DNA of 64,000 nt from Eledone cirrhosa (GCA_964016885.1 OZ024741.1:299770001-299834000), one strand, 5' to 3'. Counted from the stretch's first letter, positions 14,865 to 52,092 are shown. Numbers and translations are program-made. The notes: generated by a model from the sequence alone, not told the origin.

Positions 14865-15313
14865 TTTAAAATAACATATCGCCGGGGATTGATTAGCAAA
14901 ATGTAATAAGCTGAGTGCGGGTGGGGGTTATCTGAAAAATTAATAAGATGTGGTGGAGGAGGGTTTCGATTATTCAAGACTCGAGAGTAAGGTAAAACCA
15001 ATGTTGTTGTTCTATCACTATATTATAATTGAAATACAACGGTACGGGAGATAGTTTCAACTCTCTCAACCTACACAAAAGGGAATATTGCGAGATCAAA
15101 TAAGAATCATTCGAATACAAAATAAATTATCGTATTCAAGTAATATATAATAGTTGGCCAACTGTGGATATTAAATAACATATATTATGAAATACGTCAA
15201 TTTATCGATACAGAAATTATTTCTTATTGGTATGGAGATGTTTTTTTTTTTTTTGGTCTCCACTTACACAAGCGGTAAATAACTGTATACTTATATATAT
15301 ATATATATATATA

Positions 15314-15763
15314 AAGAAGAAGTTTATGAAACGGAAATGCGGGTATAAAGAATTTATTAGGTAACAATTGTTTCTATAGGGTATGGGTTACCTATATCTC
15401 GCTATTTGTATAATATAAAAATATTATCATAAATCGTAGGTACACTGTAAGAAAACACACTATGTCGTCAGACCTTGGTGGTAGAATGATATGAAAATAT
15501 TTTATACACTAGATATAAGAGAAATAAGGAGGTAGGAAGGGAAGAGGAAGAGGGAAGCGAGTAAGGGGGAGGGAGTCTTAGGATTTAAGACTGTCAGAGT
15601 AGTAGAGATTGTAAGGAGAAAATGTTTTGGCAGCAGTTAGCTTAATGAGGCGTGTTAGGGTTGGCGGGGGAAGTAAATTCTTCTAGTGGTGTTGTTTGGA
15701 CAAAATTTAGTTAAAGGGGTCAAAGTAGTACAGAATTACAGACAAGTTATTGGGGCTATTATA
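15314..15763 (-). repeat. 3' pseudo-LTR of the Nematis-like PLE
   Basis: Near-identical to 18514-18962. Confidence 0.92.
15359..15475 (-). ncRNA. Type I hammerhead ribozyme with long stem II insert
   Basis: Minus strand: AGGT CTGACGA C ATAGTGTG ... TACCCTAT A GAAA CAATTG TT ACCT; palindromic stem III AACAATTGTT; GUU site. Confidence 0.8.
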
Positions 15764-16073: not shown

Positions 16074-18351
16074 TTACATGCATTTAAAAATAGAAAAAGT
16101 CGTTTTCAAACGATGGTTACAGTAAATTGAACGTTCAATTTTGTGGTTCAAAAGTTTGTTTTCCGACGTTAAAATGCAGTATATCTCCATATGGCATAAT
16201 TTACAGAATCGATGATTTTGCTTATATGCAGGCGCACAACAATAATTTGCCAATCAAGGGAGAATGCTTGATTGTTCCTCCGAAGCTGCAAGACTTTATC
16301 GGCGAGGGTTGTTACGGAGCGCATTTTCTCATGCATGATCGAAGATCGATGTTGGTATAGGCGAGCTTTGAAAGATTTTGCGGTACATCCGACGTAATAC
16401 CATTTGTTGGTTCCGGAATTTATTGTACATCGGTAGACAATATTGCGTGCTAGGCACTGGTTATTCAGTTGGCACGTACATGGTTTGGTGCAGTTACAGT
16501 TATTTTTATGTTTTGCAGTAGTATCCTGGATAGTTTGGTGGATTGTAGTTGCGTGTTAGTGCGTTGTATGTCGCTATGCTGGTGCGCTGTGTCATTAGGG
16601 ATGTACTTATTTAGTATTGTTGAGTTGAGTTTTTTAATTAGTTGTTCTATGTTAGGTGCAGTGGAGTATGAGAGTCTAATGGTGCGCTGTTTAATATTGT
16701 ATAGTATTTATGTGAAGTTGTAAAGTGTTTATTGATCAGTGTATAGAATTGTGAGATAATCTTAGTGCTAATAGAAATATTGTACACGGGGTTATACCAT
16801 ATGTACTCTCTACGTCTGATTCTATTTGTTGGTTTGCACCTATTAGTATGCCTATTGATGTGTCTGTGTGGAGCAATACTAGTTCGACTTAGATGTGGTT
16901 TATTCATAGTACCTATGCGGTTATCATCTAGATATTCTCTTTTCTCGCAGTAACCAGCTTTTCTAAGTGCGTCATTATAATATTCAGCATGCTCGTTGAA
17001 GATCTGCAAATTAGACGACAGTCGGGAGATCCTTATGGATATATTTTTAGGGATAGATTTAATAATGGAATGAGGATGGTTCGATTTTACATTAACGTAC
17101 TTGAGATTTTCATTAAGTTTGTGAAATGGCTTTATATTACCGTTATTAAGGTTGAAGGTGACATCCAAGAAGTTGACCACCTTAAGATTGTGTTCGAAGG
17201 TAATATTAAGCCCTAGTTCTAAGAAAAGTTTCCTAATGTTTTTACGTCGCCTTTCTAGGTTTTGTTTGTTCCTATTCTTGACTAATAGAAGTGCATCATC
17301 GCGGTAGATTCCACTGTGGAGGTCAGTAAATTCGCTCTGGAGTCTGTGGGCTATATAGATACCACCAGATCCGTAGCCTCCGCCGAATCATTAGAACCCA
17401 TCGTAATGTCAAATTCCGAGGGTCTATCTCTGCGGACCCAATAACTATTTTCAAAATGAACTACTGTGCGCCTAGCTTCAAGTATAATATTAATTTCCTC
17501 GTTTGTGAGGTCCGAGTTAGCCTTAGCGAATGAGAGGGCCTTATGCAGAGTTTCAGGTGAAATAGAGGAATAGTATTCATCTATATCGAATTGAATAAAA
17601 GAAGATTTGTTTTTGTCACTGATGTTATTGAACCATCTTATTGCCTGTTGAGTATTACCCCATAATTTAATATCTACCTTAGCCTTAACTTGGGGATAAT
17701 ACGATCTAATATGTACTTACTGATTCTACCTATATCAGACTTTGAAGGACATATTAATCTAATGTTAGGGTTAGTATCGAAGTTAGCCATATGGTCCTTC
17801 AGATTAAAAGTCGGTGTAGCTGGAGATAGGGGTACCGTTCTGTCGTCGATTTTCAGTTTCTTAACAATATCACATGCTGCGTTATTAATGTTGGTTAGTG
17901 TAGTTGCGTTTGTTTTTTTGTACTTCTTATGTAATTCCTTACGTATAAAATTATTATATGTTTCTACATCCAGGGTGTATAGATTCGATGTTTTGTCTGC
18001 CTTTATGATAATTCCTTTAGTATTTCTCAGGTTGTCGAGTAGAGTTTTAATATCTCGTTGCAGTTCGTTTTTCCTTCCGTTTGTAAATTTGATTCCGGTT
18101 ATCATTTTCATTAAGTCCTGCTCGAAAGAATCCAGAAGAGGGTTAGCGGGTGGGTTTTTGAAGGATTTGAAACCAAACTTATCGTTGTTGGTGTCGGAAC
18201 TTTGTGTAATCCTGTTCCTATCGAAGTGAAAGGCCTTCCATCTAATCCGCCGAATAAATTCGTTTGTCCTTTGTATCATACCAAGAATGTATTCTTTTTT
18301 ACCCTGAATGGGTATGTTTTCTAAGGACATACCACAATGATGTTTTTCCAT
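16074..18351 (-). pseudogene. PLE reverse transcriptase-GIY-YIG endonuclease ORF, frameshifted
   Basis: ORF 17674..18351 (IKADKTSNLY, RLICPSKSDIG), then FIQFDIDEYY, FDITMGSNDSAE, GIYRDDAL, FLDVTFNL (ORF 16647..17180), CQLNNQCLARNIVYRC..YYVGCT, FCKLCHME..CNH; several frameshifts. Confidence 0.9.
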
Positions 18352-18513
18352 TTCTGAGACGTAGGTTGATAGGTTACTCGACTGTAAAGTAGTGTGAAGA
18401 ATTAATAAATCTGTATTCCAATGTTACTAAGTAGTCGCATTGGATGGAGTCAACCGACGTCGGAGATTGCTCAACGTATAATAAAGTGTGTTTTAAAATC
18501 CGGAGAAAATATG

Positions 18514-18962
18514 AAGAAGAAGTTTATGAAACGGAAATGCGGGTATAAAGAATTTATTAGGTAACAATTGTTTCTATAGTGTATGGGTTACCTTTACCTC
18601 GCTATTTGTATAATATAAAAATATTATCATAAATCGTAGGTACACTGTAAGAAAACACACCATGTCGTCAGACCTTTGTGGTAGAATGATATGAAAATAT
18701 TTTATACACTAGATATAAGAGAAAGAAGGAGGTAGGAAGGGAAGAGGAAGAGGGAAGCGAGTAAGGGGGAGGGAGTCTTAAGATTTAAGACTGTCAGAGT
18801 AGTAGAGATTGTAAAGAGAAAATGTTTTGGCAGCAGTTAGCTTAATGAGGCGTGTTAGGGTTGGCGGGGAAGTACATTCTTCTAGTGGTGTTGTTTGGAC
18901 AAAATTTAGTTAAAGGGGTCAAAGTAGTACAGAATTACAGACAAGTTATTGGGGCTATTATA
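18514..18962 (-). repeat. 5' pseudo-LTR of the Nematis-like PLE
   Basis: Near-identical to 15314-15763; upstream of the ATG at 18351. Confidence 0.92.
18559..18675 (-). ncRNA. Type I hammerhead ribozyme (second pLTR copy)
   Basis: AGGT CTGACGA C ATGGTGTG ... TACACTAT A GAAA CAATTG TT ACCT; stem II fully paired if G-U is allowed. Confidence 0.85.
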
Positions 18963-19000
18963 TATATATATATATATATAAAATATATATATATATATAT

Positions 19001-19396
19001 ATAAAAACAGTCTTGGCGCAAAATCAACTTTTTACATTCACATGACCTCTACCGACCAATCAAAATTGTTTTGACCACAAGCATTTTTACAACACAAAAA
19101 TAACGCTGGAGCCATTTTTTTAACATAAAAACAGGTAGAATTCCCAAAACTAATCAGATCAGAGCAAACAGCACGGACACTCTATCTCAAAATTATTTTT
19201 GAAAAGCATTTAGAAATGCGCAACCGGTAAAAACTTAAAAACTTAAAACCACAACTGAATACTAACCCATACAATCACTAATACTCTTTTATTCCTAATT
19301 AAACCATTTTTCAACTGTGAACAATTTGTCAGCATTTTCTATTCCGTTTACCAATATATAATAACTTGTGTGTTACACCTCTATTCTTTTAACTAT
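19001..19396 (+). repeat. 5' pseudo-LTR of the Neptune-like PLE
   Basis: Essentially identical to 23825-24221 (one extra T in a homopolymer seen). Confidence 0.93.
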
Positions 19397-19421
19397 CATA
19401 TCCTCACACGAGATACAGAAA

Positions 19422-20733
19422 ATGCCAACAAAAACGGATACAACCCTCATCAACTCAAATGAAGAGATCCTACAGGAACTCAAGAAAATCAACACCAACC
19501 TATCTTTGCTGGTCGACAAACTTGACTCCACAAATAAGGAAACCGCCACCGGATACAAACACTCCGAAATCGGCGACAAACTCCAAAACCTTTGCGATAC
19601 TATCCAAACTATGTTCACTACTACCAACCCAGGAAAAACCAACGAAGAACCATGTGAGATTGATTCACACAAAATGAAAATTCGAACAATTCCAAAATGG
19701 AACAAATCCCTCAGAGACAGAAAGTTCTCATTCTGGAAGATGATACAAAATCACAACAAAGCAGAGATATATGAAAAATGGCTTAACTCAACCCCTCTAA
19801 CTCTCCCCCGTAAACTACAAATAAAGTCCATTCCAAATGAACCCGAACCTCAAAGACACCTTAGGGAAAGAATGGCATTGGAAAAAATGAAGACAGAAAT
19901 TGAACTTCTTAAACTGAGGGCCCAGACAAATGAGGAAAAAATCAAAACCATCGATGAAGAGATCCTCCTGGAAATCAACAACAAAACTGAAGGCCCCAAG
20001 GTAGAGAAGATCTCCAAATTATGGAAAGGGGACTGCAACAGAGAAGAACTGAAATCCCTTCAACGCTGGGAAAAAAGTGCCGCTTGGTTCCTACACTATG
20101 AATAGACTTTTCAAATTTTATTACACCTCCAATAACCCGTTCATAAAAATAGGAAAACCCATAACTGAACCGCACAACAACTTCTCAAACCCCCAAGCCT
20201 CAAACAAACGAAGAAGGAAGCACCACACCGAAGATGAACTTCCCAACCTCGCTACCATAAGAAGGAACAAAAACCCAAGAAATCATCTCCCCCAGAATGA
20301 CATTTACAACTTTCCCCCTTCAAGGAGACACCATACCAAATCACTCAACTACTACGCGGATTCCTCATCGTCAAACATAGGGAAAAGATACCACCGCCAT
20401 GATAGATGCAACAACTTCCCCGCCTCAAGGGGACAGCAAGGTAATTACCATTTTCTCAACTCTCACTTCAACAATACACAACAAACCCACACCACACGAT
20501 ACAACCAACAACGTAGGCCACTTATAACACCACAATACAACATGGCACATAGAAACACACACCCATACTCGCAGTACAGGAACACCCCATTCAATCTACA
20601 ACCACCAACCCGAACCACATTTTACAACAACAAGGAATATAACAAGCACAGGAGACCGCTTAACATCAGCAGACAACCCCTCTACCCCAACCATTTTTTA
20701 GACACAGCACACAGATACAGGCAAACAAAATAA
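19422..20733 (+). pseudogene. PLE ORF1: predicted coiled-coil then basic Asn/Arg/His-rich region; one stop/frameshift near 20105
   Basis: ATG at 19422 just after the pLTR; overlapping ORFs 19368..20105 and 20077..20733; heptad-like RERMALEKMKTEIELLKLRAQTNEEKIKTIDEEILLEI. Confidence 0.7.
20694..20700 (+). promoter_or_regulatory. Candidate -1 ribosomal frameshift heptamer T TTT TTA
   Basis: Phased as X XXY YYZ in ORF1 (CAT TTT TTA GAC); the -1 frame runs into the RT N-terminus, which has no preceding in-frame ATG. Confidence 0.55.
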
Positions 20734-23017
20734 CACAAGACAGGGAGGAGAAACCGATAGTAATAAAAATTATCAATCTTACTAGTGCAGAACCAACACC
20801 CAACCTTATCAACTTACTCTCCAAAGGTCTTAAATTCACACCGACCCCACTACGTCCTAACTACTATGAAATGAAGGAAGACATCACAGACTTCTGTAGA
20901 AAGTTACGACTTAGTGAACAACTATTCGACCAGTACAATGAGGATGAATCATTAGCCAGAAATAGAAGCAATTACACCCCTTCAAAAGGTAGAAATAAAA
21001 TCCTGGACGAATTCTGTGAACACATCACACACTTCCCTTACCAACACTTGCACAGACAAAAACACAAGCCAAACCTCAACAAGAAAGAATGGGAAGAATT
21101 AAATAGATTAAAAACCGACAGAACCATTACAATTAAAGAGGCTGATAAAGGGAGTACAGTAGTCCTAATGGAGACAGAATTCTATATCAACTTAGCGCTC
21201 TCCACTTTGGAAAACGAAACATACTACGAAAGGCTGAACACTACAATCAACAGAAAATTATGAGAAACCTAAAAACTCTAATCAACCAATACAAAGAAGG
21301 ACTCACTAACAAGGAATTCAGCTTCATCACAGACTTCACAAGTAAATCCAGCCTTTTCTACGGTATCCCTAAAGTACATAAAAGCGAATCAATCAGTAAG
21401 GCATGCAAGGAAGCCACAGACATAGTCATCAATGTCCCCTCACCCAATGATCTCAAATTAAGACCTATAATAGCAGGCCCCGCTTGCGAAACGCACCGTC
21501 TTAGCAACTTCATTGATACCCTTCTCAAACCCTTCCTCAAGCACATCAAAAGCTATATAAGGGACGACCTAGATATGCTCAATCACCTCCCTAATATGCC
21601 ACTTTCTGAACAAACCCTACTAGTGACGTTCGATGTAGTCAACCTATACTCCAACATCCCCCACAACCTAGGAATAGAAGCTATCCAATTCTGGCTGGAT
21701 AACTTCCACAATGAACTCCCACAACGCATCAAAAAAGAATTCGTGATAGAGGGACTCAAATTTATCTTGGAGAACAATTACTTCGTTTTCAATAACAAAC
21801 CCTACAGGCAGAAATCTGGGACCGCTATGGGAACGAAAACAGCCCCTACGTATGCCAACCTAGTCATGGGATACCTGGAAATCACCCTCTACACTAAAGT
21901 CCTAAACAAATTTGGAAACACCCTCCACTTACACATTGAAAGGAACTGGAAGCGATATCTTGATGACTGCTTCATCCTTTGGCACGAAAACATCGAAAAA
22001 CTTAAAGAATTTCACACCCTTATAAATGGGCTCAACACAAATATTAACTTCACGATGGAATACAGCCATCAACAACTCCCCTTCCTCGACATCCTCATTA
22101 AGATCCATAACAAAAAAATAGAAACAGACATATACTACAAGCCCACAGACTCCAAGCAATACCTCCCCTTCAACTCTTGCCACCCTAGACACGTTAAAAT
22201 TAATATTCCCTACAACTTAGCCAAGAGAATCTGTACTATAGTCTCCAATAAAAACATCTGCTACTTACGGCTACAAGAACTAAAGGACACACTCATAGGC
22301 AGGGACTACCCTGCATCACTAATTGACAATGGAATCCAACGTGCCCTAAAACTCAGTACCCAGGACCTTAGACACCCTAAAGTAAATCAACCAAAACTAA
22401 AAGCTCTTCCATACATCTCCACACACAACCCCCTCAACAACGAGGCCTTTGACACCATCCTCCAGAACATCCCTGTATTGAAAAAGGACCATAGAATGAA
22501 CCAAATTCTACGAACACACGATATCATAAAGAGCAAAAGACAATCCAAGTCAATGAAAAACATCTTAACACATGCCAAAGTACTGCCAACCACAACAACG
22601 AAACCCACAGTAAAAAAATGCGATAGACCCAACTGTGGCATTTGCATCAACCTAATAGAGGGTTCGGAATTCTATTTCAAAGATGGACAACGTTTTATAG
22701 TAAAACACAATTTCACATGTGCATCGGAAAATTTAATATATGTATTAACTTGTTCAGGTTGTCGAGAACAATACATAGGCCAGACCAAAAACAGCCTCCG
22801 CCAACGCATGACTGTCCATAGATCCCAAATTAAAATACGGGAATACAGGAAAATACCACTGAGTGAACACATTGATACCTGCGCCGCCCAAAATCATCCC
22901 AACTTCAGAATCTTTCCCCTCTACAAATTTAAAGATAATGCCACCCACACCCAGCGCATCAGCAAGGAATCTTACTTCATTAACAAATACGGACCCCGTC
23001 TAAACACTTCTCCCTAA
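20700..23017 (+). pseudogene. PLE RT + Cys linker + GIY-YIG endonuclease, one frameshift near 21240-21260
   Basis: KIINLTS..LLSKGLKFTPTP, KEADKGSTVV, YGIPKVHK, LRPII, FDVVNLYSNIP, GTAMGTKTAPTYANL, RYLDD, LPFLDI, CDRPNCGIC, NLIYVLTCSGCREQYIGQT, terminal LN. Confidence 0.93.
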
Positions 23018-23195
23018 GACGAACCCACAACATACACACGTCAACATACATACCTACATCAGCACACATCTCTACCCACATATAAACACAATGACACACG
23101 TAAACACACATGCTCTATGGTGCAATACAAAAAAATATATGTGCATATATATGTATGTATATATGTATATATATATATATATATATGTAGTGAAA

Positions 23196-23246
<51 letters not shown>

Positions 23247-23646
23247 GTGAATATCATTTCACACCTTTTATTGTTAAGATTGTTGATGTTCTATTAAGAG
23301 AACCGATTTTACTGAAAAAATCGAATAATGTACACCATTTTACCAGGGGGGAAAAAAATACTGGTCCACCCACACACGCATACACACACACACACACATA
23401 TATACACAGACACATACACACGCGTACATCAACATACAAAGAGACTTATACACACACACACACACACACACACACGCACTTCTCCGTATAAGACAAAAGC
23501 TGAAAAATATCTTTTGACCTTCGAATGACTCTGCTGTGTGTATGTACGCACACACACACACACACACACACACACTTATCTTAATAGCCATTTGACGCAC
23601 ATCGCTGGTGGCTATTGTCGCAGCATCGAACACCTTACTACTACTA

Positions 23647-23698
<52 letters not shown>

Positions 23699-23824
23699 TT
23701 GTTGTGAAAGAGTCATTTCTCAATCTTGGCGCAAAACCAATTTTTTATCCACATGACCTCTACCGACCAATCAAAATTGTTTTGACCATAATCTTTGCTG
23801 GAGCCACTTTTCTAACATTTTAAC

Positions 23825-24214
23825 ATAAAAACAGTCTTGGCGCAAAATCAACTTTTTACATTCACATGACCTCTACCGACCAATCAAAATTGTTTTGACC
23901 ACAAGCATTTTTACAACACAAAAATAACGCTGGAGCCATTTTTTTTAACATAAAAACAGGTAGAATTCCCAAAACTAATCAGATCAGAGCAAACAGCACG
24001 GACACTCTATCTCAAAATTATTTTTGAAAAGCATTTAGAAATGCGCAACCGGTAAAAACTTAAAAACTTAAAACCACAACTGAATACTAACCCATACAAT
24101 CACTAATACTCTTTTATTCCTAATTAAACCATTTTTCAACTGTGAACAATTTGTCAGCATTTTCTATTCCGTTTACCAATATATAATAACTTGTGTGTTA
24201 CACCTCTATTCTTT

Positions 24215-24221
<7 letters not shown>
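23825..24221 (+). repeat. 3' pseudo-LTR of the Neptune-like PLE
   Basis: Copy of 19001-19396, preceded by a diverged ~110-bp subrepeat at 23721-23824. Confidence 0.93.
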
Positions 24222-24245
<24 letters not shown>

Positions 24246-25334
24246 GCTCTTCATGAAAATATTGGGAACTCAATCACAATTCGCTGCAGTACGATTGCCG
24301 GATTGTTCTTTTGCATTGGAACATGAACTCGCATTCTTTTTATAAGAAAGAGGCAATCCTATAAGTTTCGAAGTTCACTGCTTTTAGCATTTAATATTGT
24401 ATCTAGATATGAAATTAAGTTCCATATTGGTAGTGTAATATGTGTGATGTCACTCTATGTTGTGACTACTGATATAACAGAAATGACTTGACATAAACGT
24501 AGTGGTATAAAATTTTATAGTATAACTGTACAGGAATTAACGCAGGGATCATTCTACTGTTATAGTGTTAAAGTGATTTGGTTATACAAATGTTTCCTCA
24601 CCAATGAACTTATAAGAATGTGACAATGGCTGTATGACTATGACATTGTGGTGATGCTGTCATTGTTAAGGGGATGTGATTGTCATAGTGTGATTGTAAA
24701 TAGCTGTAGTGGTATATTGGTGATGTTGATAGTAGAAAATATGACACAAAATCGCAGTATATGTAGTAATAGACCTATAGCGGAGTATTGACAATGTATT
24801 AGTGAACAAATATTTATTCAAAAACATTTGTTGTTTTAATATTTAGAAATAATTAATAGTGAAGGTGGATAGAAATGATAAAAGTGAAAACTTAAGGTGT
24901 TCTGCTAAATAGATTTATGTTCCGAGTTCAAATCGCCACTGTCTTCTAAACTTCCAGGATAGTAAATTAAGACACTAATATAGAAATGGGAGCAATTTAA
25001 TCAATTATATTCTATTAAGAATTTGGTGTCATTGGAATTGCTATAAATATTATAATCTTAAAATAAATAACGGTGGTGGATAATAAACATGTGAGAACGT
25101 AGTACAAAGCTCCTTTCTGAATTTACGTAGGTCACCGTATGTTTCAATTCCAAATTCCTTGTGGTTAACTTTGCCTTTATTGCGTAGATAAAATAAATCC
25201 CAACAAGAATTTGATTCAATCAGCTAGACTTTCGTCTATAATTTGTGTGTATTTGCACCTTCATTGCAATTGAATTTTTATTGTACTAAAGATTATTTAA
25301 TTATTTCTACGTATGTAACTAACCTGACCACACT

Positions 25335-37277: not shown

Positions 37278-38734
37278 TCTTCTGGTTTTATAATTTCACA
37301 AAGTTTTACCAATAGAGAGAGAGTCGGTTTCTAACATAAACACAAGACTCTCTCATTGGAATTTACACAACATCAACTAGGTAGATATGTATGTATGCAT
37401 GCATGTGTAGATATGGATGTTATTGTATGTGTGGATGTGTATGTTTTGAGTTGTATGTGTGCATGTGTATATGCTTTGTATCTGTACATGTGTATATGCA
37501 GTTATTAGATGCAACATTTTTAGAATGTTTTACATATTTTTACTGTTCCATTAATGTATTGTACTTGTAGTTTCCTAACTAGTTGTGTTCTTTCTGTTCC
37601 TGTGAAGCCTAGCTTCTCAAGATTTGTATTGAGGCAGTTACTAACATATCCCAGTGCCCCAATAATCACAGGCATAAATCTGAAGGTGTAATCAGGGTGG
37701 AGTATCTGCAGATTTCTCTTCAGTTCTGCATAAATATTCTCCTTTTCACTAATCTTTGATATTATATTGGCATCTGCTGTGCAGCTAATTTCCACTTCTG
37801 TGCATGTTTTCTTCTCCCTGTCCGATATCATAATATCTGGTCTGTTATGCCTGCATTTTATTGGGGTTTTTACTGGAACATTCCACCAGTACTCTTTCAG
37901 ATTATGTACATGGATGTCTTCCACATTGTTGTAGCTTTTAATGTGTTTATTATCGGGGCTATCGTTTTTACGAACTGCATTGTACAGTGTTTTGGCCACT
38001 AAATCATGCCTCATAGGTAGATAGTACCGCGATGACATCTTTGGGCAGCTGCTGATGACATGGGTGATATCCTCGATGTTATTTCTGCAGAGCCTGCACT
38101 TGTTATCACATCTAGGTGTTTTGCCTGCATCCCTATCTCTTTTGTGAATCAGGTATTTCGTGCTAATCTCCTGTTCTTGGATTGCAAAAGCGTATCCTTC
38201 AAGTGGGAGCCAATATAGCGGTTCTTGGTCCAAGATAGACTACTTTCCTTATCTATATTACTCTCACTCTGGAGCTTCCTGGCAACATATCCATGCATGA
38301 TTTTTTGCTGATAGGCATGCAGTTTTTCATCCATGGATTCACTGCGATACTGTTTTTGATTATCACACAGGGAATATCTCTCAAGGAGTTCCTTCCCAAC
38401 TCTCATGATCTCATCTGTTTCATGCAGATAGACTTGCTCGAGAAGCGGGCTCCTACGCTTCAAGATTCGTAGATGTTGTCGGAGAGATATGATGCGACAT
38501 TCAAATGTTGTCTGGACTGATGTTAGGCCTCTGCCTCCCTGCTTACCTTTCAAGTAAAGGCGGTCTATGTCACTGTTGATGTGGAAGTTTCCGGTGTTAT
38601 TCAGTATTTTTCGAGTTCCAACATCAACTGCTCGGATTTCGTGTATTGTCCAATTGAGTATTCCAAACGTTGGTGTTAAGACAGGCACAGCAAACACATT
38701 GTGAGCCACTGTTTTGTTTTGCGCAGAGAGTTCC
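37278..38734 (-). mobile_element. 5'-truncated R4/Dong-like non-LTR retrotransposon (RT thumb + CCHC + RLE)
   Basis: DRLYLKGKQGGRGL, MHGY, EGYAFAIQEQEISTKY, CRLC..HVISSC, RHD, HNRPDI..VEISC..KENIY; bounded by (ATGT)n on both sides. Confidence 0.88.
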
Positions 38735-38814
38735 GTATGTATGTATGTATGTATGTATGTATGTATGTATGTATGTATGTATGTATGTATGTATGTATGT
38801 ATGTATGTATGTAT

Positions 38815-39385
38815 CCCAGTACAACCTGTCTCATGGTCGGGTCGTTGGCGACTAAACTGGCAACCCCACCAAGGTTTCTTGGTGAGGAGGGTGACTTTGG
38901 ACATCCTGCAGGACTAAAAACAAGACCTGTCAAAGGGCAAAGGAGCTCTTAAGAGTCAATGGCCATCCAAAATCACAGGGAGAGATGACCCCTTAGCCTT
39001 TGTCAAGGCAGAATTCTAGGAGAAGGAAAACTCTGATATAATACCTGCAACCCTGATGGTATCCAATGATGTTGACTTGTTCTTCTTTTTGGTAAATATC
39101 ATCTTGGTTAAGAGAGTGGGACTGGCTTTGTGCAGTGCCTTTGCTCACTATAAAAGCTTCACGGCACAGGCATTGCTTTATATCTGGAGATATCTCTGCA
39201 CTTGTCATCACATGTACCATGGGCCCAGCACTATATGTCAATAATGGTCACAAGTGGGGTGTTTGTGCCAGATTTTTCAAGTCGCTGGCTGGACTAAAAA
39301 GTCACACTCGTTCAGCGCATCGGTAGGGGTTCTCCTACATGGATATAAAGTAGTGGCCGTACTCGAAAACGAGTTGGCAGCCACC
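38815..39385 (+). mobile_element. Internally deleted RTE-like derivative (5' UTR + 3' end) between (ATGT)n tracts
   Basis: CTAGGAGAAGGAAAACTCTGAT motif recalled from RTE/BovB-related 5' regions; terminal zinc-finger remnant HKWGVCARFFKSLAGLKSHTRSAHR*; short 3' UTR then (ATGT)n. Confidence 0.55.
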
Positions 39386-39413
39386 ATGTATGTATGTATA
39401 TATGTATGTATGT

Positions 39414-42400
39414 TTTCTCTTTCTCTTAATTTCGAGTATATTTTTTTGACCGGCCACCTTCCTGGTGGCAAGGTTGTAAAAGAAAAGAAATTGTCATCCC
39501 TTGAATCGCAAGAATGTTTTGCACATTTTGAAGGTGCCAGCTATCGCAGCCATTTGTAGACTATGAATTAGGGAGCTGCGCTTTTTGTCCGCAAATCCAA
39601 GTTCAGTCATACTTTGGTCCAAGCGGGTTGGTATATAACCCGTAGCTCCAATAATGATAGGTATGAAGCTAAAGGTGTATCTTGGATACTGGATTTGTAA
39701 ACTCCTCATCAATGGTCCATAGATGTCCTCCTTCTCCCGTATTTTTCTGACAACGTTTACTAGAAGTGGGCAGCTGATCTCCACAACAGAACACGTTTTC
39801 AATGTGTGGTCCCAAACAACAATATCAGGCCGGTTGTGCTTTAATTTGGTGGCAGTTTTTATTTTCAGGTTCCACCAGTATTACTTAGTGCCATCTGTCT
39901 CAATATATTCTTCCTCCTTTGTTGTTAATTTTGTTTTCCGAAGTGCGTTCCAGATGGTTCTAGCTATCCCATCGTGTCTCATGGGAGGTAGTAGCGAGAT
40001 GACATTCTTTCGCAGCTGGCAACAATGTGGCTTACATCTTGGATCTTTGTTTTACATAGCCTACATTTATTGTCAGCTGCTGGCCCTCCCATTTTGTGCA
40101 GCAGATATTTGGTAGGGAGTTCTTTTTCCTGTATTGCATAGAGATATCCCTCAAGGTGCGATGTCATAAACTTGTCGGAACTCCATGCCAGGATTTTTGA
40201 GTGGTTTATCCCCTCTATGGTTTGTGTTTTACGCCTCAAGTATCCATGCACAACCTTTTCTGTAAATTGGTCAATTTTTTTTTATCTTGTTTGAACATTG
40301 AATAGGATCTTCCGATTTCTCTGGGTGAGAGATTTATATCGCGCTTTATTCCATATCTCTCCTCCAGATCAGTCGCTATTCTAATGATAATTTTTTTTCA
40401 TGCTCATAAACCTGGGCAAGAAGGTTGCCAACCATTTTCCTCTGTTGAAGGTGTTGCTTCAGTGTCACTATCCGGGTCTCATATGTTGTTAATATTGATT
40501 TTAGACCCCGGCCACCATCCTTGCGTAAGAAGTATAGCCTATCCACCTCACCATGATGTTAAAGTTCCCAGTAACACTGAGAAGTTTTCGAGTTCTAACA
40601 TCCATCTCACTTAGCTCTTGCAATGACCAGTTCAGCAGGCCAAATGTTGGCGTTAGAATTGGCACAGCATAAGTATTGTGGGCAATGTATTTGTTGTATG
40701 CTGACAGTTCTGATGACCATATTTTCTTTACTCTTCTGAGGTATTCAGTTCTGGTTCTCTCCTTATTTATGGGTCCATCATATCTGACATTCTCATCCTG
40801 TCCAAGATATCAGTAGTTGTCACCTGACTGCAGAGGTTGTATTGTCAGGCCGTTCATCTCTAGATTTCTAGAGGAGGGCACAGCTCTTCCACGTTTTACT
40901 GCCAAATATGCACACTTGGACTCACCAAATTTCATTTTGATGTCGATTGAAAATTGTGTAATGAGGTCCAATTGTTTCTTGATGTCATTGATATTTGGCC
41001 CATACAACTTCAGGTCATCAACAAAGAAAATATGGGAGATACTTCTGGGCCCACTTCTTTGTCTACCTTGTTTCCTGAGTAGGTAAGATAGTGGATTCAG
41101 TGAGAGAACGAAGAGTAGCACTGACAAGCTATCACCCTGAAAGATGCCCTTCTGGTAATGTATCTTATCAGTCTTAACCTGCTCTTTCTCACCTCTAAGG
41201 ATCAAATTGGTGTACCAGTTCTTGGTCAGGCGTTCAACAGCAGCTACCAATGGTTGTGGGACTTTAGTTAACTGTAAAGCCTTAATAGTCCACCCATGAG
41301 GTACACTATCAAATGCTTTTTGATAGTCCAGCCACACCACAGTCATGTTTCTGCGATTCTTTGTTGTTTTTTTCCTGAATCATTTTGTTAGTTAGTAGGT
41401 GATCTATGCAACACCACACCTCCCTCTTTCCACCAGCTTGCTCAGGTGTTATGATGTTGTTGGTAGCACAGTGATCCTGTAAGAACAGGTTAAGGCACCC
41501 AGTATATAATTTATACATGGTGTTTTGGCAGGCAATTGGGCGGTAATTTTTAGCAAGGGTGGTTTGGCTATTTTGGGGAATGAGGAGAGTAGTGGCAGTT
41601 GATAACCAGCTGGGCAGTTCTTGTGTGCCCTTAATGGTTTCTGTAAACAGCCGTATGAGATCTTGCCGATAGAAAGTGAAATTCTTCAACCAGTATCCTG
41701 TAATGAGGTCTGGGCCTGGCGATTTCCTATTCGACATTTTCTGTAGAACTGTTTCCAGTATTGACCCATCTATGTCATATTATTTTGTCTGGACATGTTG
41801 GAAGTAGTCCTGTTCCAGTTCTTTTAGCCAATTAGCTTGTCTTTTGAATCCGTCATCCGTTTCCCATACAGATCTCCAGTAGCTGTCAACCTGTTCTTTT
41901 GAAGGGGTGTCATTTACAGGGATTGAGCTTTTGCCACCGAAGCTGCGATAAACTGATTTAGGATCTCTGGCAAACAATCTATTTAGCACTTGTCGTTTAT
42001 GTGCTGTTTGACTTATATTTTAGTATTTCTGTTGTAGCTGTGAGTTGTTGTTTCAACTGGTGTAATTTGGAGTTCAAAGTTTAAAATTTTGTATCTCCAA
42101 ATCGTCTCTCTAACTTTTTCTTAAGGTCTTCCTGGTGTCGTGTGAACTTGCTCTCTATGTTGCATTTCATAACGACTGCGATGTGTGTGATACTTCGTCT
42201 CAGGGACAAAATTTTGGTTTTTAAATTTCGCATCCACGCTGGTTCAGGCTTTCTGTTTGTATCTTGATTGCGTGGTTTTAGATGTGTGTTATATGATAGC
42301 AATGTGACAGCTGAAAGATATAAAAAAACATTAAGCGTTTCAAATGTCGTTTCTACACCTTTAGATCGTATAGCCTTCAGATAATTGCCAGCTATTTCGT

Positions 42401-43640
42401 TCACCGCTTCCAATTCCAATTTAGTGGGTTCTGTACTGATTCTAGTGTTGTATGGTCTGTCACTCACATTCAGGCTGTGTATCTCTTGAAACATATCGTT
42501 CCATATCACTTGTAGGTTGTCCACAAGTTTTTGGTGCTCTGTTTGTTCAGTAGAGTCATGAATTTCAGCCTCGTTGTTGATGTGGTGACAATTACTACTA
42601 GAGTTAGCTGACCTTTCTCGCTGTTCTTCAGTGGAAGTGGGATGGATTTCAGCAAAATTGTTGGTGAGCTGTTCACTGTTAGATTTAGCTGACCATTCTC
42701 TTTGTCTGTCAGTGGAGGTAGGGTGGTTGTCTACAAGGGCTGTATTTGTAGTATCACTCAATTCCGTTAGATGTATCAATTTACATCTAATGATACGTTT
42801 TGCCTGTTCATTTAAATGCTTTGGAGAAAAGTCTAATTCTGTGTGTTTGGAGTTCCATAAAGTTTTTAGTCTTTGCATAAAACCGAACTTTTGGGGTTCA
42901 GATTGTTTGTATGCTTCATATAATACTTTGTTAAGCTCGTAGCTCCACTGTGTAGAACGGTTGTAGTTGCGATTTGGTCGAAGGAGACTTGTACTTTTTG
43001 CCATGATGAGTTCGTCTATTCACTAATATTTCGTATTTATTTTTCAAAATAGTTGATGATCTTCTTTAAAAGTTTCGACAAAGTTCTGTCAGAATCAAAT
43101 TTAAAGTTATTCGCAGCTTGGGTAATATTTCTTTTCAGTTGGTTTTTAATTCTACAACTGTGTTTTAAACGTTGTTCTTGAATCGTTTGAATCGAGAATA
43201 AAAAGAACCGTTACTTAGTATATTCCTTTATGAATGTAATATAATATAACAACGCTGTATTTATATGTTAAGGTTTATGTATCATTCATATAAATAACTG
43301 TTCTACAACTTATTCACAACATATTCACAGTTCAAACACTTATGTTTTTATTTCTGAATCGAAAACGTTACTTGTATATTTCTTTATAAATGTAATATAA
43401 CAACGTTGCATTTATATGTTAAAGTGCATGTATCGTTCATATATCATAAGTGTATGTATCTTTCATATAAATAGGTGTTTTACAACACACTTACCGTTCA
43501 AACACTTATGTAGAATTATTGTATCTAATCTTACCGCGTAATGTAGCTCAACTTTTTCCAATATATGGTATGTTGCCTTCATGTAAGCCGTAATTACACA
43601 CGTCCGATTATCGGACACTGACCACAACGGTCGCTATTTA
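39414..43640 (-). mobile_element. Full-length but frameshifted R4/Dong-like RT-RLE retrotransposon
   Basis: ATG 43004 to stop 39494 in fragments: KSPGPDLI, NYRPIAC, WLDYQKAFDSVPH, GIFQGDSLS, FVDDLKLY, CRLC..HIVASC, VVEISCP..KEDIY; (ATGT)n at both ends. Confidence 0.92.
39494..43004 (-). pseudogene. RT + restriction-like endonuclease ORF, multiple frameshifts
   Basis: Collinear ORF fragments 42081..43004, 41780..41989, 41309..41737, 40810..41346, 39979..40251, 39494..39802. Confidence 0.9.
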
Positions 43641-47721: not shown

Positions 47722-50700
47722 CGGTAGATGTCTGCCTGTGTGTGTGTATGATGTTTATGCATTTCCACATTTCTCTACCGACAGGACAGGTCAACGCGTA
47801 ATTACTTTTGCCAAAAATGTCCTGCTTCTATGAGGAAAAATCGATAGAGCTAAATACATGCTGTAACCATCTCTCTTACACGCTTCATTCCTCTCACTAT
47901 CCACAATCTCCTCTGCAAATCTCTTTAAAAGGTTACTGCCTCCATCTCCACTACAGTTTAGAACAACGACAAATCTTCTCTCTCTATAATAGATCATTCA
48001 CCCTCTTCGTTCGTCATACATCAAATATCAAAGTTTAAAAAGCCGATAACACTAAATACATATTGCTCTCTCAACGTTACATTTTACATCAAATAACAAA
48101 TATTCAAAAGCAACAGATGAATTTATAAAACAACAAACGTAACAATAACGACGCTTAAGCGTTCATTTACTTGAATCTCAATAAAGACATTATATTTTAT
48201 TGTTGTACTTTTTGTAATTTTTTTCTTTGTTTTTCTCAATATGAGACAAAAAATTAATGAGAAAACTGTTTTAACGTACGTCCGATTTCAATGGTATATT
48301 TTCCAGTGTACTCCAAAATAACGCCCCTGTTTACTCTCTTTTGTGCTATAATTCAGACAGGCTTGGCTTACAGGTTTGACCTATTATTTGACGTGCATTC
48401 TTCATAGGTCTTACTTAGTACTCACTTTCCACTTACTCACCGTTCAATTGAAAGTTTTGGCTACTCCCCCTTTCATGCTCCCTTACCTGCATACATATTT
48501 ACGTGTTCGGTCCTGCTACAATATAGTACTCACTTTAAACTAATTCAAAGTTCATTTGAAAATGTTCGCTACCAAACACATTCTTTGAATCTACGGTCAT
48601 GCCACCCCAAAAAAGACCACGACTTAGTGGCCAAACTAAAGCTGCTTCTGCTGCCAACGAAGAAGAGCTACAGAGTTGTCCGTAGAAAAGTTGACTCGGT
48701 TGTCACAAAATGCAACTCGAAATGCAATTACCCGGGCAACCGAGACAGAAAAAAAAGAGGAGCATCCGCCTTTCCGGAAATGCATGTGTAATTGCAGTTG
48801 CACGTGCAGCGCAAACTGATGAACAGCATTCTCGACGACGAAGCAAAATGCGGCCTCCACCGCTGAGGCACGTTACGGTGAGGACGAAGAACACCGTACA
48901 GTCGACGACGAAGAGATGCCGCCTCAACTGCTGCGTCACATCTTGCTGACGTAGAAGGGCAGCGTTCCAGACGTCAACTTACGGACGCCGCTTCAACAGC
49001 TTCCGTTCGCGCATCAGAGACTGCGCAAATTCTGTTACAAAGGCTAACTGCCAACGCACTCCGCAGGAGTGCTAAACGAGGTACACAAAGGATCAGTTGC
49101 ACTCAGTGGTCTCATAAGGCTTTCCACTATGACCCAACAGTAAACTATGCAGTGATGCCAGAAGTTCAGATTGGATCCTTGTCTGTCATTTGCCATTATT
49201 GTCAGGCAAGAAAATGGCCTGGGGAAACTTCAAAGATGTGCTGCCCTGACGGCAAAGTGAAACTGCCTCCTCTACAGGAACCACCACAACCTTTGAAGTC
49301 TCTACTGACCGGTGCCCCAGCGAAGGCGGAACACTTCCTTCAATGTTCCAGGAGATACAACGCTGCCTTCCAAATGACCTCTTTCGGAGCTAACATCATA
49401 CGCGAGGACGGCTTCATGCCTACCTTTAAAGTTCAAGGAAAAATTTACCACAGAATCGGTTCGCTACTGCCCACGACAGACGGACAGCCCCAGTTCCTAC
49501 AGCTATACTTTGTCGCTGACTATTTGGACCAAGCGGAACGACGTGCTTCAATTTCGCCTGGCACAGACATGAAACTTCTGTTGCAACTCCAGAGAATGCT
49601 GCGCGAAATCAACAACTACATTCGCAGTTTTAAATGCGCATTGGAGGCTGCTTCGTCGCTTAATTTTGATGTTATAATCGACGCTGATAGGAAACCACCA
49701 GACACCCACGCCAGACGTTTTAACACTTCCACGTGCAATGAAATAGCTGTGCTTCTTCATCATGATTCAGTGTAGGGACAATAGTCTGCAACGGATCAGC
49801 AAGAGGCATAGGTCCTACGACGCATTCCAATATGCCCTACTTTTCCCATTTGGTGTCGACGGATACAACTTTGGAATTTCTTTGTGCAACAGCAACAAAA
49901 CTGTTTCTTCTATGCAATTCTACACCTACCGATTCATGGTCCGCGAATTCTGCTTTAACCAACTCCACCGTGCAAGAGTACTCTTCAACCAGCTTGCTGT
50001 AGACGCGTGCGCAAAGATGGAATCTGAAAGGTTGTGCTACATAAGGAACAATCAAGCATGCCTTCGTTCGGACAGCTACATTCACTTACGGGATGGAGTA
50101 ATGAATGGCGTCGATCCCGAGAACCTAGGAAAACATTGTATCCTTCCGTCGACCTTCATTGGGAGTTCCCGATACATGAGTGAACGGACACAGGATGCTA
50201 TGACGTACGTCCGTCTCTACGGCAGACCGGATCTCTTCATCACTTCAACATGCAACCCTAAGTGGAATGAAACTACCGCGGAATTATTCCCCGGACAAAG
50301 GGCGTCAGACAAACACGATCTTACGGCACGAGTCTTTCACTTGAAGTTGACAAAACTTATTGAACTCCTAAAATCAGGTAAGGCCTTTGGACCTGTTAGG
50401 TGCTACGTATACACCGTTGAGTGTCAAAAGAGAGGCCTGCCACGCTCACCTACTCATGTGACTGATAAAGAAAATAAATGCAAGCAGCATAACAGTATCA
50501 TTTCAGCAGAAATACCCAACCCAAATTGGACTGAGAACTCCACAACATCGTCACTGCTCACATGGTTCATGGGCCATGCGGAAACGGTTTCAACATGAAT
50601 TCACCATTCATTAAAGAAAGAAGGTGCACCGAGAGGTATCCTAAGCTATTCCTCCGAGAAACTCGGACAGGTAGTGACGGTTATCGATTATACCGCCGCA

Positions 50701-52092
50701 GGGAGCCAGCGGACGGAGGAATTGTTGCGAAAACACCACATCACAACGTCGACAACCGGTGGATTGTATCCTACTGCCCACTTCTGCTTAAATTGTTTAA
50801 CGCCCACATTAACGTTGAATTCTGCCACTCCGTCAAATCGATAAAGTACGTCTGCAAGTATATCAATAAGGGGTCCGGTGCTGCGTCCTTTGGTCTTACA
50901 ATGGAGAAAAACCGAGACATAGTAACTCAATAACATGTCGGCTGATACATCAGCAGCAATGAAGCGTTCTGGTGATTCTTCCACTTTGCAAGACACCATA
51001 ACTACCCCCCCCCCCCAATCAAACAGTTGGCGGTGCATCTTGAAAGCGGTCAAAGACTCTACTTCACCGCCTCCACCGCTGCTGAGATAGCAGAGGAACC
51101 CAAGGACACCTCACTTACGGCATTTTTTAAGTTATACCGAAGCAATCCCTTCGGCAAGACCATCTTCTACTCTCAGGTGCCATCATACAACACATGGAAC
51201 ACAGACAACATAATTTGGTTAAGAAGGGTGAAAGGACATCCCGTTGAGGGACATCGAGACATTAAAATGTCCCCTACTCTTGGGAGAGTGTAGACCATTC
51301 ATCCTAACCAACATGAATGCTTTTATCTCCGCCTTCTACTGCATGACGTGGTAGGACCGACATCTTTCGACGATCGTAAAACAATCAACGGAGAGCTTTG
51401 TACTTTATTCCACGCAGCCTGCCTTAGACGGGGTATACTGGAAGATGGCGCTCAGTGGGATTCGACATTGGCGGAGGCAGCTACAATACGTTCAGCGCGA
51501 ACTCTTCGGCAACTCTTTGCGGTGCTACTGCTGACATGCGAGTTAAGCGACCCTGCATCCTTATAGGACAAGTACAAAGAGGACCTTTCCGATGACTATA
51601 CACACCAAGGACAAATGCTACTCCCCCATTCCGACGTACGAGTCAGCGACGAATTCTTCAACAAAGCTCTCATTGATATCGAGGACAAAATCCCAACTGC
51701 CGGCAGAAATGACATTCCATTCTATGGACTGCCAAAAGTTCAGCGAACTGGCTCCGACAAACCTCCGACGGGCATAATTCAGGAAAATGCCTACGATGTC
51801 CACACACTCGAACTGTTCATCAACGAAAACGAGCCGAAATTGTTGCAGGACCAACGACAGCGTATGACACAGTTTGCACTTCCATTCGTCAACGCAGAGG
51901 AGGTATCTTCTTTTTGAACACCAAAGGAACTGGTAAAACATTCGTCAATAAACTCCTCCTCGACAAAGTGCGACAGCAGAAAGGAATCGCCCTGGCTGTG
52001 GCTTCTTCTGGCATTGCCACAACTCTGCTGCCCGGAGGTAGGACAGCTCATTCCGCATTTAAACTTCTATTCAACACGACTTCAGACGACAC
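47710..52092 (+). mobile_element. Autonomous-type Helitron, decayed and 3'-truncated
   Basis: TATATAT..GATGTCTGCCTGTG head similar to the element at 44137; RepHel coding remnants; no CTRR terminus seen. Confidence 0.85.
48599..52092 (+). pseudogene. Helitron Rep/PIF1-family helicase (RepHel), many stops and frameshifts
   Basis: MPPQKRPR start; CHYCQARKWPGE..CC..GK; YNAAFQMTSFG; YGRPDLFITSTCNPKW; VECQKRGLP; HINVEFC.SVKSIKYVCKYINKG; GTGKTF; ASSGIATTLLPGGRTAHSAFK. Confidence 0.93.

Follow-up and report, generated by a model that had tools for sequence, protein, structure and literature searches.

The window analysed is a 64,000-nucleotide stretch of the Eledone cirrhosa genome (GCA_964016885.1 OZ024741.1:299770001-299834000). 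Within it a Penelope-like element (PLE), complete in extent and flanked by (TA)n runs, lies on the plus strand between two pseudo-LTRs (pLTRs) at 19001..19396 and 23825..24221, which form a direct repeat with 100% identity over 121 + 282 nt. A (TA)n run (18959-19003) stands immediately 5' of the first pLTR; the second is followed by (TA)n and bordered on its 5' side by a partial diverged repeat (~23721-23824). ORF1 (19422..20733) begins at ATG 19422, ends with TAA at 20731-20733, and encodes 436 aa in unbroken copies; it is broken here at 20103-20119. The RT-EN frame (20664..23017), opened by the TAA at 20661-20663 and 784 aa long from stop to stop in unbroken copies, gave profile matches to RVT_1 (E 2.8e-7) and GIY-YIG (E 7.2e-6). 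It overlaps ORF1 by 70 bases and is in the -1 frame relative to it. In the overlap ORF1 reads CAT TTT TTA GAC, and a -1 slip at the heptamer T TTT TTA (20694..20700) enters the RT frame, which reads F-F-R-H-S...IINLT...LLSKGLKFTPTP. The conserved N-terminal motif, IINLT...SKGLKFTP, is located at 20769, and the first ATG of the RT frame (20871) lies behind it. An earlier sequence-only reading of the window had proposed these same features (about 1.3 kb of ORF1 ahead of RT, a stop opening the RT frame, a first ATG past the motif, and a heptamer leading exactly into RT), and direct reading of the DNA agrees with it on these points.

Several marks of endonuclease-bearing (EN+) PLEs are present: the pLTRs, a PLE-type RT with a C-terminal GIY-YIG endonuclease (22733..23002), and the CCHH motif, with two Cys between GIY and YIG and two His behind (LIYVLTCSGCREQYIG...H...H). 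RT is joined to EN by the CX4CxxC linker CDRPNCGIC (22619..22645), an instance of the CX2-5CxxC mark of Neptune elements, common also to Nematis, as defined by Craig et al. 2021 (PMC8557442); the linker occurs as well in a sister family (C, below). Compared by eye with alignments in the Craig supplement, the long spacer past the linker and RT3/RT4 resemble the Neptune rows, and the endonuclease Cys/His layout was set beside the Neptune rows of Fig. S2; the same source treats Neptune as paraphyletic (PMC8557442). A search for a hammerhead ribozyme found no CTGANGA...GAAA core in 18950-24260, and Rfam returned only microsatellite noise, although minimal forms may escape such a search. The element is a damaged copy of a young PLE with 375 junction matches in the genome, and the linker together with the by-eye comparison suggests that it is of Neptune type. 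The pLTR at 19001-19396 was far deeper in the sequence runs than the body of the element (summed contig depth ~100-fold higher in run X1, depth not being copy number), a hint that solo or non-autonomous copies of the pLTR are numerous.

Other elements lie in the window. A second, broken PLE at 16172-18423 is on the minus strand, head to head with the Neptune-type element, with direct repeats at 15309-15763 / 18509-18962. PLEs of the Hydra group are described mainly from cnidarians. The RT3 (IQFDIDEYYSSI) and RT4 (FDITMGSNDSAE) of this second element, which has a weak GIY-YIG match, are similar to the Hydra rows in Fig. S1 of Craig et al. 2021 (PMC8557442). A Helitron fragment occupies 48882-50930 on the plus strand (Helitron_like_N, E 2.8e-47), and a broken non-LTR retrotransposon occupies 37523-43019 on the minus strand (RVT_1, E 4e-18; weak zf-RVT); a KPDIVV-like motif of a restriction-type endonuclease was recognised in it by eye.

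Two reading frames as the state of the family

The window copy carries two private breaks. The first is a TAG (20103-20105) with one extra base near 20116, absent from 21/21 other covering copies; the second is one base missing at 21229, absent from 29/29 other covering copies. Two such lesions had been read from the sequence at ~20105 and ~21250; both exist, and the second is at 21229, not ~21250. The heptamer and the -1 offset were found in 30/30 near-identical loci, the window itself included. Because this set had been picked by junction likeness and is biased, the junction was also searched for with 4-9 free bases at the T run, giving the 375 matches, of which the first 100 listed were counted by hand: 88 had exactly T6, 3 had six bases with a substitution, 5 were one base shorter and 4 had T7. 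A set of 150 copies chosen through the RT N-terminus most often had an open frame of 784 aa; the longest, 956 aa, was in a 5'-truncated T7 copy. Fused copies with T7 exist (L031), and a 1183-aa frame was present at one further locus of this family (family A). The comparison of genomic copies suggested by the sequence-only reading thus found T6A and the frame offset kept and the window's breaks absent elsewhere; T7, which would have given one continuous frame, accounts for 4 of the first 100 matches listed. A split ORF1/RT layout carrying T TTT TTA is what this family normally has, not a lesion, and it departs from the single ORF of canonical EN+ PLEs.

The heptamer recurs in the same phase, with RT offset by -1, in three sister families (B, C and D) and, with G as its last base, in a metagenome contig (L096). 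The RT frames of these five families (A, B, C, D and L096) are 39-73% identical to one another in their first 200 residues, and the same heptamer phase in four families besides A is more than chance would provide. Family B reads CAT TTT TTA GAC, with RT at -1, in 30/30 loci, and its ORF1 stop comes 20 codons on. Family C reads CCT TTT TTA GGG in 19/20 hand-picked loci (four of them picked for long frames), with the ORF1 stop 19 codons past the heptamer Leu; the -1 offset was present in 12/20, six others being fused and one shifted via an unstable C run downstream, and the last having lost the heptamer and become fused. Family D has T TTT TTA in 5/5 loci, with the next G replaced by A in one. 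L096 reads CAT TTT TTG TGG and the contig ends inside RT, so that its endonuclease part is not covered. The point of entry is pinned in D and L096, where a single codon separates the opening of the -1 frame from the heptamer. Searches of the octopus's own genome with distant ORF1s added only family D among the loci retrieved; candidates among viral contigs yielded 0/227 and among metagenome contigs 1/71.

The C run belongs to a sub-lineage of family C (e.g. L064-L083), in which a G-to-C change has left ~8-22 C just downstream of the heptamer. Some of these junctions fuse ORF1 and RT into a single frame of 1138-1181 aa, and about half of 100 vary in length. When 100 junctions were counted by hand, 49 had the modal length and the rest fell 12/18/21 over the three frames, a spread that looks like instability; the length in 18/100 would fuse the ORF1 and RT frames.

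The ORF1 protein family

A query of the first 227 ORF1 residues matched 581 clusters at 50% identity, and the best 150 of these were analysed. Adding P0002 gave 151 proteins, of which 95 with at least 290 aa were kept and 56 shorter ones dropped. All of the best 150 of 581 clusters are 541 aa or less, with no fused homologue among them; when fused homologues of greater length (829-2365 aa) were sought, 0 of 4687 candidates qualified, which is weak evidence. Word-index protein searches returned 2 and 4 matches, and the one named relative was an Octopus bimaculoides protein, 66% identical over 22% of the query, which by itself would make a cephalopod host likely. ORF1 consists of a helical N-terminal part, a conserved core (~aa 76-240) and a disordered tail rich in N/Q/R/H. 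In the structure model pLDDT was 92-98 over aa 91-240 and mostly <50 past aa 250, with an all-helical core. Structure searches gave a best Foldseek E of 0.38 and a best Z of 8.8 (rmsd 6.5, 124 aligned), the matches being helical bundles; no Pfam family matched and the sequence contains no CCHC zinc knuckle. ORF1 thus represents a conserved helical family that lacks annotation, comprises at least 581 clusters and is probably not homologous to Gag. The description of it as gag-like survives as an analogy of arrangement only, given the missing zinc knuckle and Pfam match and the generic nature of the helical-bundle matches.

The C-terminal end of these proteins appears to retain the heptamer. Phe-Leu (FL) occurred within the last 40 residues in 73/95 homologues, vs 7 and 6 in two preceding control windows; FF occurred there in only 5/95, which indicates that the T run keeps its phase. 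The amino acids K, E, Q, M and W lack an NNT codon. Not one of these five stood before FL in the 75 homologues that have the pair within their last 45 residues, against a background of 22%. The FL context is probably the protein trace of NNT TTT TTR; outside the five families compared as DNA, both the heptamer and an RT behind it are deduced from the amino acid sequence.

In B, C, P0002, P0003, P0004 and P0013 a Trp (TGG) stands exactly at the position of the kin's ORF1 stop, within a D-T-R-W-like motif that is kept with synonymous changes. Stop to Trp is a one-step change, and one may speculate that it arose as a reverse-transcribed A-to-I edit of TAG.

Probable slippage at the heptamer and what may promote it

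The heptamer fits the X XXY YYZ pattern in the ORF1 frame, inside the overlap, and is conserved; in family A no start codon precedes the first conserved motif of the RT frame. On this comparison of copies and families we regard programmed -1 frameshifting at U UUU UUA, joining ORF1 to RT-EN, as likely, with a probability of roughly 85%, and the join proposed from the sequence is to that extent well supported. One mRNA would be made from the pLTR, and a minority of ribosomes would slip back one base at U UUU UUA, by tandem slippage of tRNA-Phe and tRNA-Leu, to produce an ORF1-RT-EN fusion; the majority would terminate on reaching the stop of ORF1, and the ORF1 protein, made in excess, may be a structural or RNA-coating protein.

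The sequence-only reading had seen no obvious stimulatory stem, and folding bore this out: over 50 and 70 nt downstream none of the five families folded better than shuffles (z 0.1 to 1.2, none <0, with a program that has no pseudoknot model). The first 50 nt gave 0.0 kcal/mol in A and D; at 90 nt these two reached z -1.6 and -2.2 through a hairpin >50 nt away, and family B has a small hairpin 7 nt downstream of the heptamer. A different regularity, not noted in the sequence-only reading, was found in the position of the ORF1 stop (20731..20734 including the C at +4), a candidate pause site at which a halted ribosome would keep the one behind it on the heptamer. This stop falls exactly 10 codons after the Leu codon in A, D and L096 and in each reads TAA-C (A and D being kin). 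Among the 75 homologues the distance from FL to the stop was exactly 10 in 27, 11 in 6, longer in 41 and shorter in 1; a geometric null expects 3-4% at exactly 10 and 43-58% sooner, the rows being related so that p-values are overstated. The 10 residues between Leu and stop share no common motif. On a quick tree the 10-codon state occupied 31/88 rows in both halves, with 11 changes. That the spacing is a by-product of the RT-frame Ile-Ile-Asn codons was considered and rejected, since A, D and L096 stop well before that motif (B and C stop inside it).

A stop at 10 codons with a near-empty class below it matches the spacing of queued ribosomes. In vertebrates such queues give peaks every 11 codons with a 30-nt period, and C at +4 is enriched at collision stops (10.1101/710491); in E. 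coli reporters a ribosome stalled at a stop raised -1 slippage of the trailing one, with a peak at 9 codons (PMC6815119). If a ribosome paused at the ORF1 stop, the next in the queue, 11 codons behind from A-site to A-site, could likewise be left on the heptamer. We consider collision-driven stimulation by a ribosome at the ORF1 stop plausible, at about even odds. In longer-tailed lineages slow motifs (Pro-Pro, Pro-Asp, Trp) at the same register may replace the stop. Among 59 longer tails, 17 had Pro-Pro, Pro-Asp, Asp-Pro, Arg-X-Lys or Trp at the stop register, compared with 8 and 9 at the overlapping neighbouring registers and 0-6 elsewhere; the motif set was chosen after the data had been seen, and the Trp and Pro states come from few clades. 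The wider proposal, that across an EN+ Penelope lineage of hundreds of ORF1 clusters the -1 stimulator is a ribosome paused at a stop or slow Pro/Trp motif one ribosome length downstream, we would place slightly short of even. Five ORF1 tails of one clade (P0046, P0065, P0087, P0110 and P0119) have Gly-Gly-Gly or Gly-Gly-Thr at +9 to +11 after FL, a candidate for a further pause or for a G-rich fold at the same register.

The stop spacing may instead have no part in slippage. The -1 shift could be real and depend on the heptamer alone, on a weak fold or on a trans factor, with the 10-codon stop inherited or kept for the ORF1 C-terminus or for mRNA stability; this would displace only the queue step and not frameshifting itself. 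We hold it to be a serious possibility, at somewhat less than even odds. U UUU UUA needs no stimulator to be slippery. Against the queue, 47/75 homologues stop beyond 10 codons, as do B (20) and C (19), and the B hairpin would suit a fold. A stop can also act by position through refolding of the stimulator, as described for SARS-CoV-2 (PMC8168617). The stop nevertheless keeps one register across 10 residues that lack a common motif, although the linker in the RT frame ranges between 20 and 24 residues in length, and only 1/75 falls below 10 codons; a weak fold is opposed by the 0.0 kcal/mol of A and D and by the lack of any z <0 at 50-70 nt.

Other routes to RT, and known systems

The AG that ends the heptamer's context (TTTTTTAG, AG at 20700-20701) had also been read as a possible splice acceptor, in which case splicing would attach an exon with an ATG, lying upstream, to the RT frame, while genomic copies would keep the intron. 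Several features lend themselves to this. Of the 17 bases ahead of the AG, 13 are pyrimidines, a higher number than at any other of 15 AGs examined; the base next to the heptamer is G in A, B, C and the majority of D copies; and, by protein letters, a codon starting with G follows Leu in 50/75 homologues against a background of 19%. In family A, and in this family only, an internal RT-frame ATG and a fair donor, AAG/GTAATT (20406..20446; ATG 20406, donor at 20441), are in the phase needed, as are ATG 19216 and a weak pLTR donor at 19228, and PLEs are known to retain introns (PMC8557442). As a general account, however, splicing probably fails: L096 (T TTT TTG TGG) has no AG, the residue after Leu is unable to supply one in 17/75 homologues, and B, C and D have no donor scoring at least 3 with an in-phase ATG, by a rough donor matrix. 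The best donor in ORF1's own frame would remove a 261-nt intron and stay in the ORF1 frame, and an acceptor needs neither a fixed phase to ORF1 nor a stop at a fixed distance. In contigs of runs X1-X5, which cannot show absence, 0/9 joints listed ended at 20701. We consider this route improbable.

Polymerase slippage on the T run could add a U, or the rare fused copies could be the working ones and the split form a dead lineage; T7 and other fused copies do exist. Either version is very improbable. T7 (4 per 100 copies) is no commoner than shorter runs (5), the C-run variants of family C occupy all three frames beside the modal length, and the T run keeps one phase to ORF1 that a polymerase would not need; the split form recurs in five families, with no fused homologue in the best 150 of 581 clusters. 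Least probable, and barely credible, is separate translation of ORF1 and RT (from ATG 20871, a non-AUG codon, or re-initiation past the ORF1 stop), to which the RT-frame ATG between heptamer and motif in family C and the two-ORF EN-minus PLEs described in PMC6431247 lend something, but which places the first ATG of A behind the conserved N-terminal motif, finds no ATG before the motif in B, D or L096 (bar one Met inside the L096 motif), and leaves the heptamer unexplained.

If, as we favour, RT is reached by frameshifting from ORF1, the single-ORF picture of EN+ Penelope elements, which are sister to telomerase RTs, would change, and a family of ORF1 proteins so far without annotation, at least 581 clusters in size, would be added. 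It would also explain why RT-only consensus models of such elements lack a start codon. Should the stop spacing work as proposed, this would be collision-driven frameshifting occurring naturally in animals, the precedent having been seen only in engineered bacterial reporters, and RT output would rise with ribosome load. The literature searched, outside whose scope lie most subscription papers and Repbase, yielded no account of programmed frameshifting in Neptune elements; we think it rather unlikely that their ORF1 and frameshift have already been noted somewhere in print.

The conserved two-ORF layout in an EN+ Penelope lineage is real. Published sources agree with the sequence-only reading that canonical EN+ PLEs are described as single-ORF: Craig et al. 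2021 call them so (PMC8557442), and PMC6431247 assigns a single ORF to EN+ elements and two to EN-minus ones. In the present element a separate 436-aa ORF1 overlaps RT in the -1 frame. The legend to Fig. 1 of Craig 2021 describes an ORF1 separable by a frameshift with a pseudoknot, the clade being unnamed, and the supplement includes two Chlamys elements of Chara in which a Gag-like ORF1 lies upstream (PMC8557442); in the available portion of PMC3846280 frameshifts are mentioned only as defects. The two-ORF elements of that legend would share with it an upstream coiled-coil-type ORF1 set off from RT by a frameshift; unlike them, the present element has an endonuclease, internal (TA)n targets and no predicted pseudoknot-like fold.

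The PLEs with a pseudoknot frameshift are probably the EN-minus Athena/Terminon elements. U UUU UUA is also the slippery heptamer of HIV-1 gag-pol. As in HIV-1, the heptamer lies in the upstream frame and the enzyme would be a minor -1 fusion; in contrast to HIV-1, there is no stable downstream stem, ORF1 shows no resemblance to Gag, and LTR, protease and integrase are lacking. The arrangement proposed here is also like that of the E. coli reporters of Smith et al. 2019 (PMC6815119), in which a slippery heptad precedes a slow stop by one ribosome length with no RNA stimulator; theirs are synthetic and bacterial, with an optimum of 9 codons, whereas the present case is natural and eukaryotic, with a predicted spacing of 11 codons from A-site to A-site.
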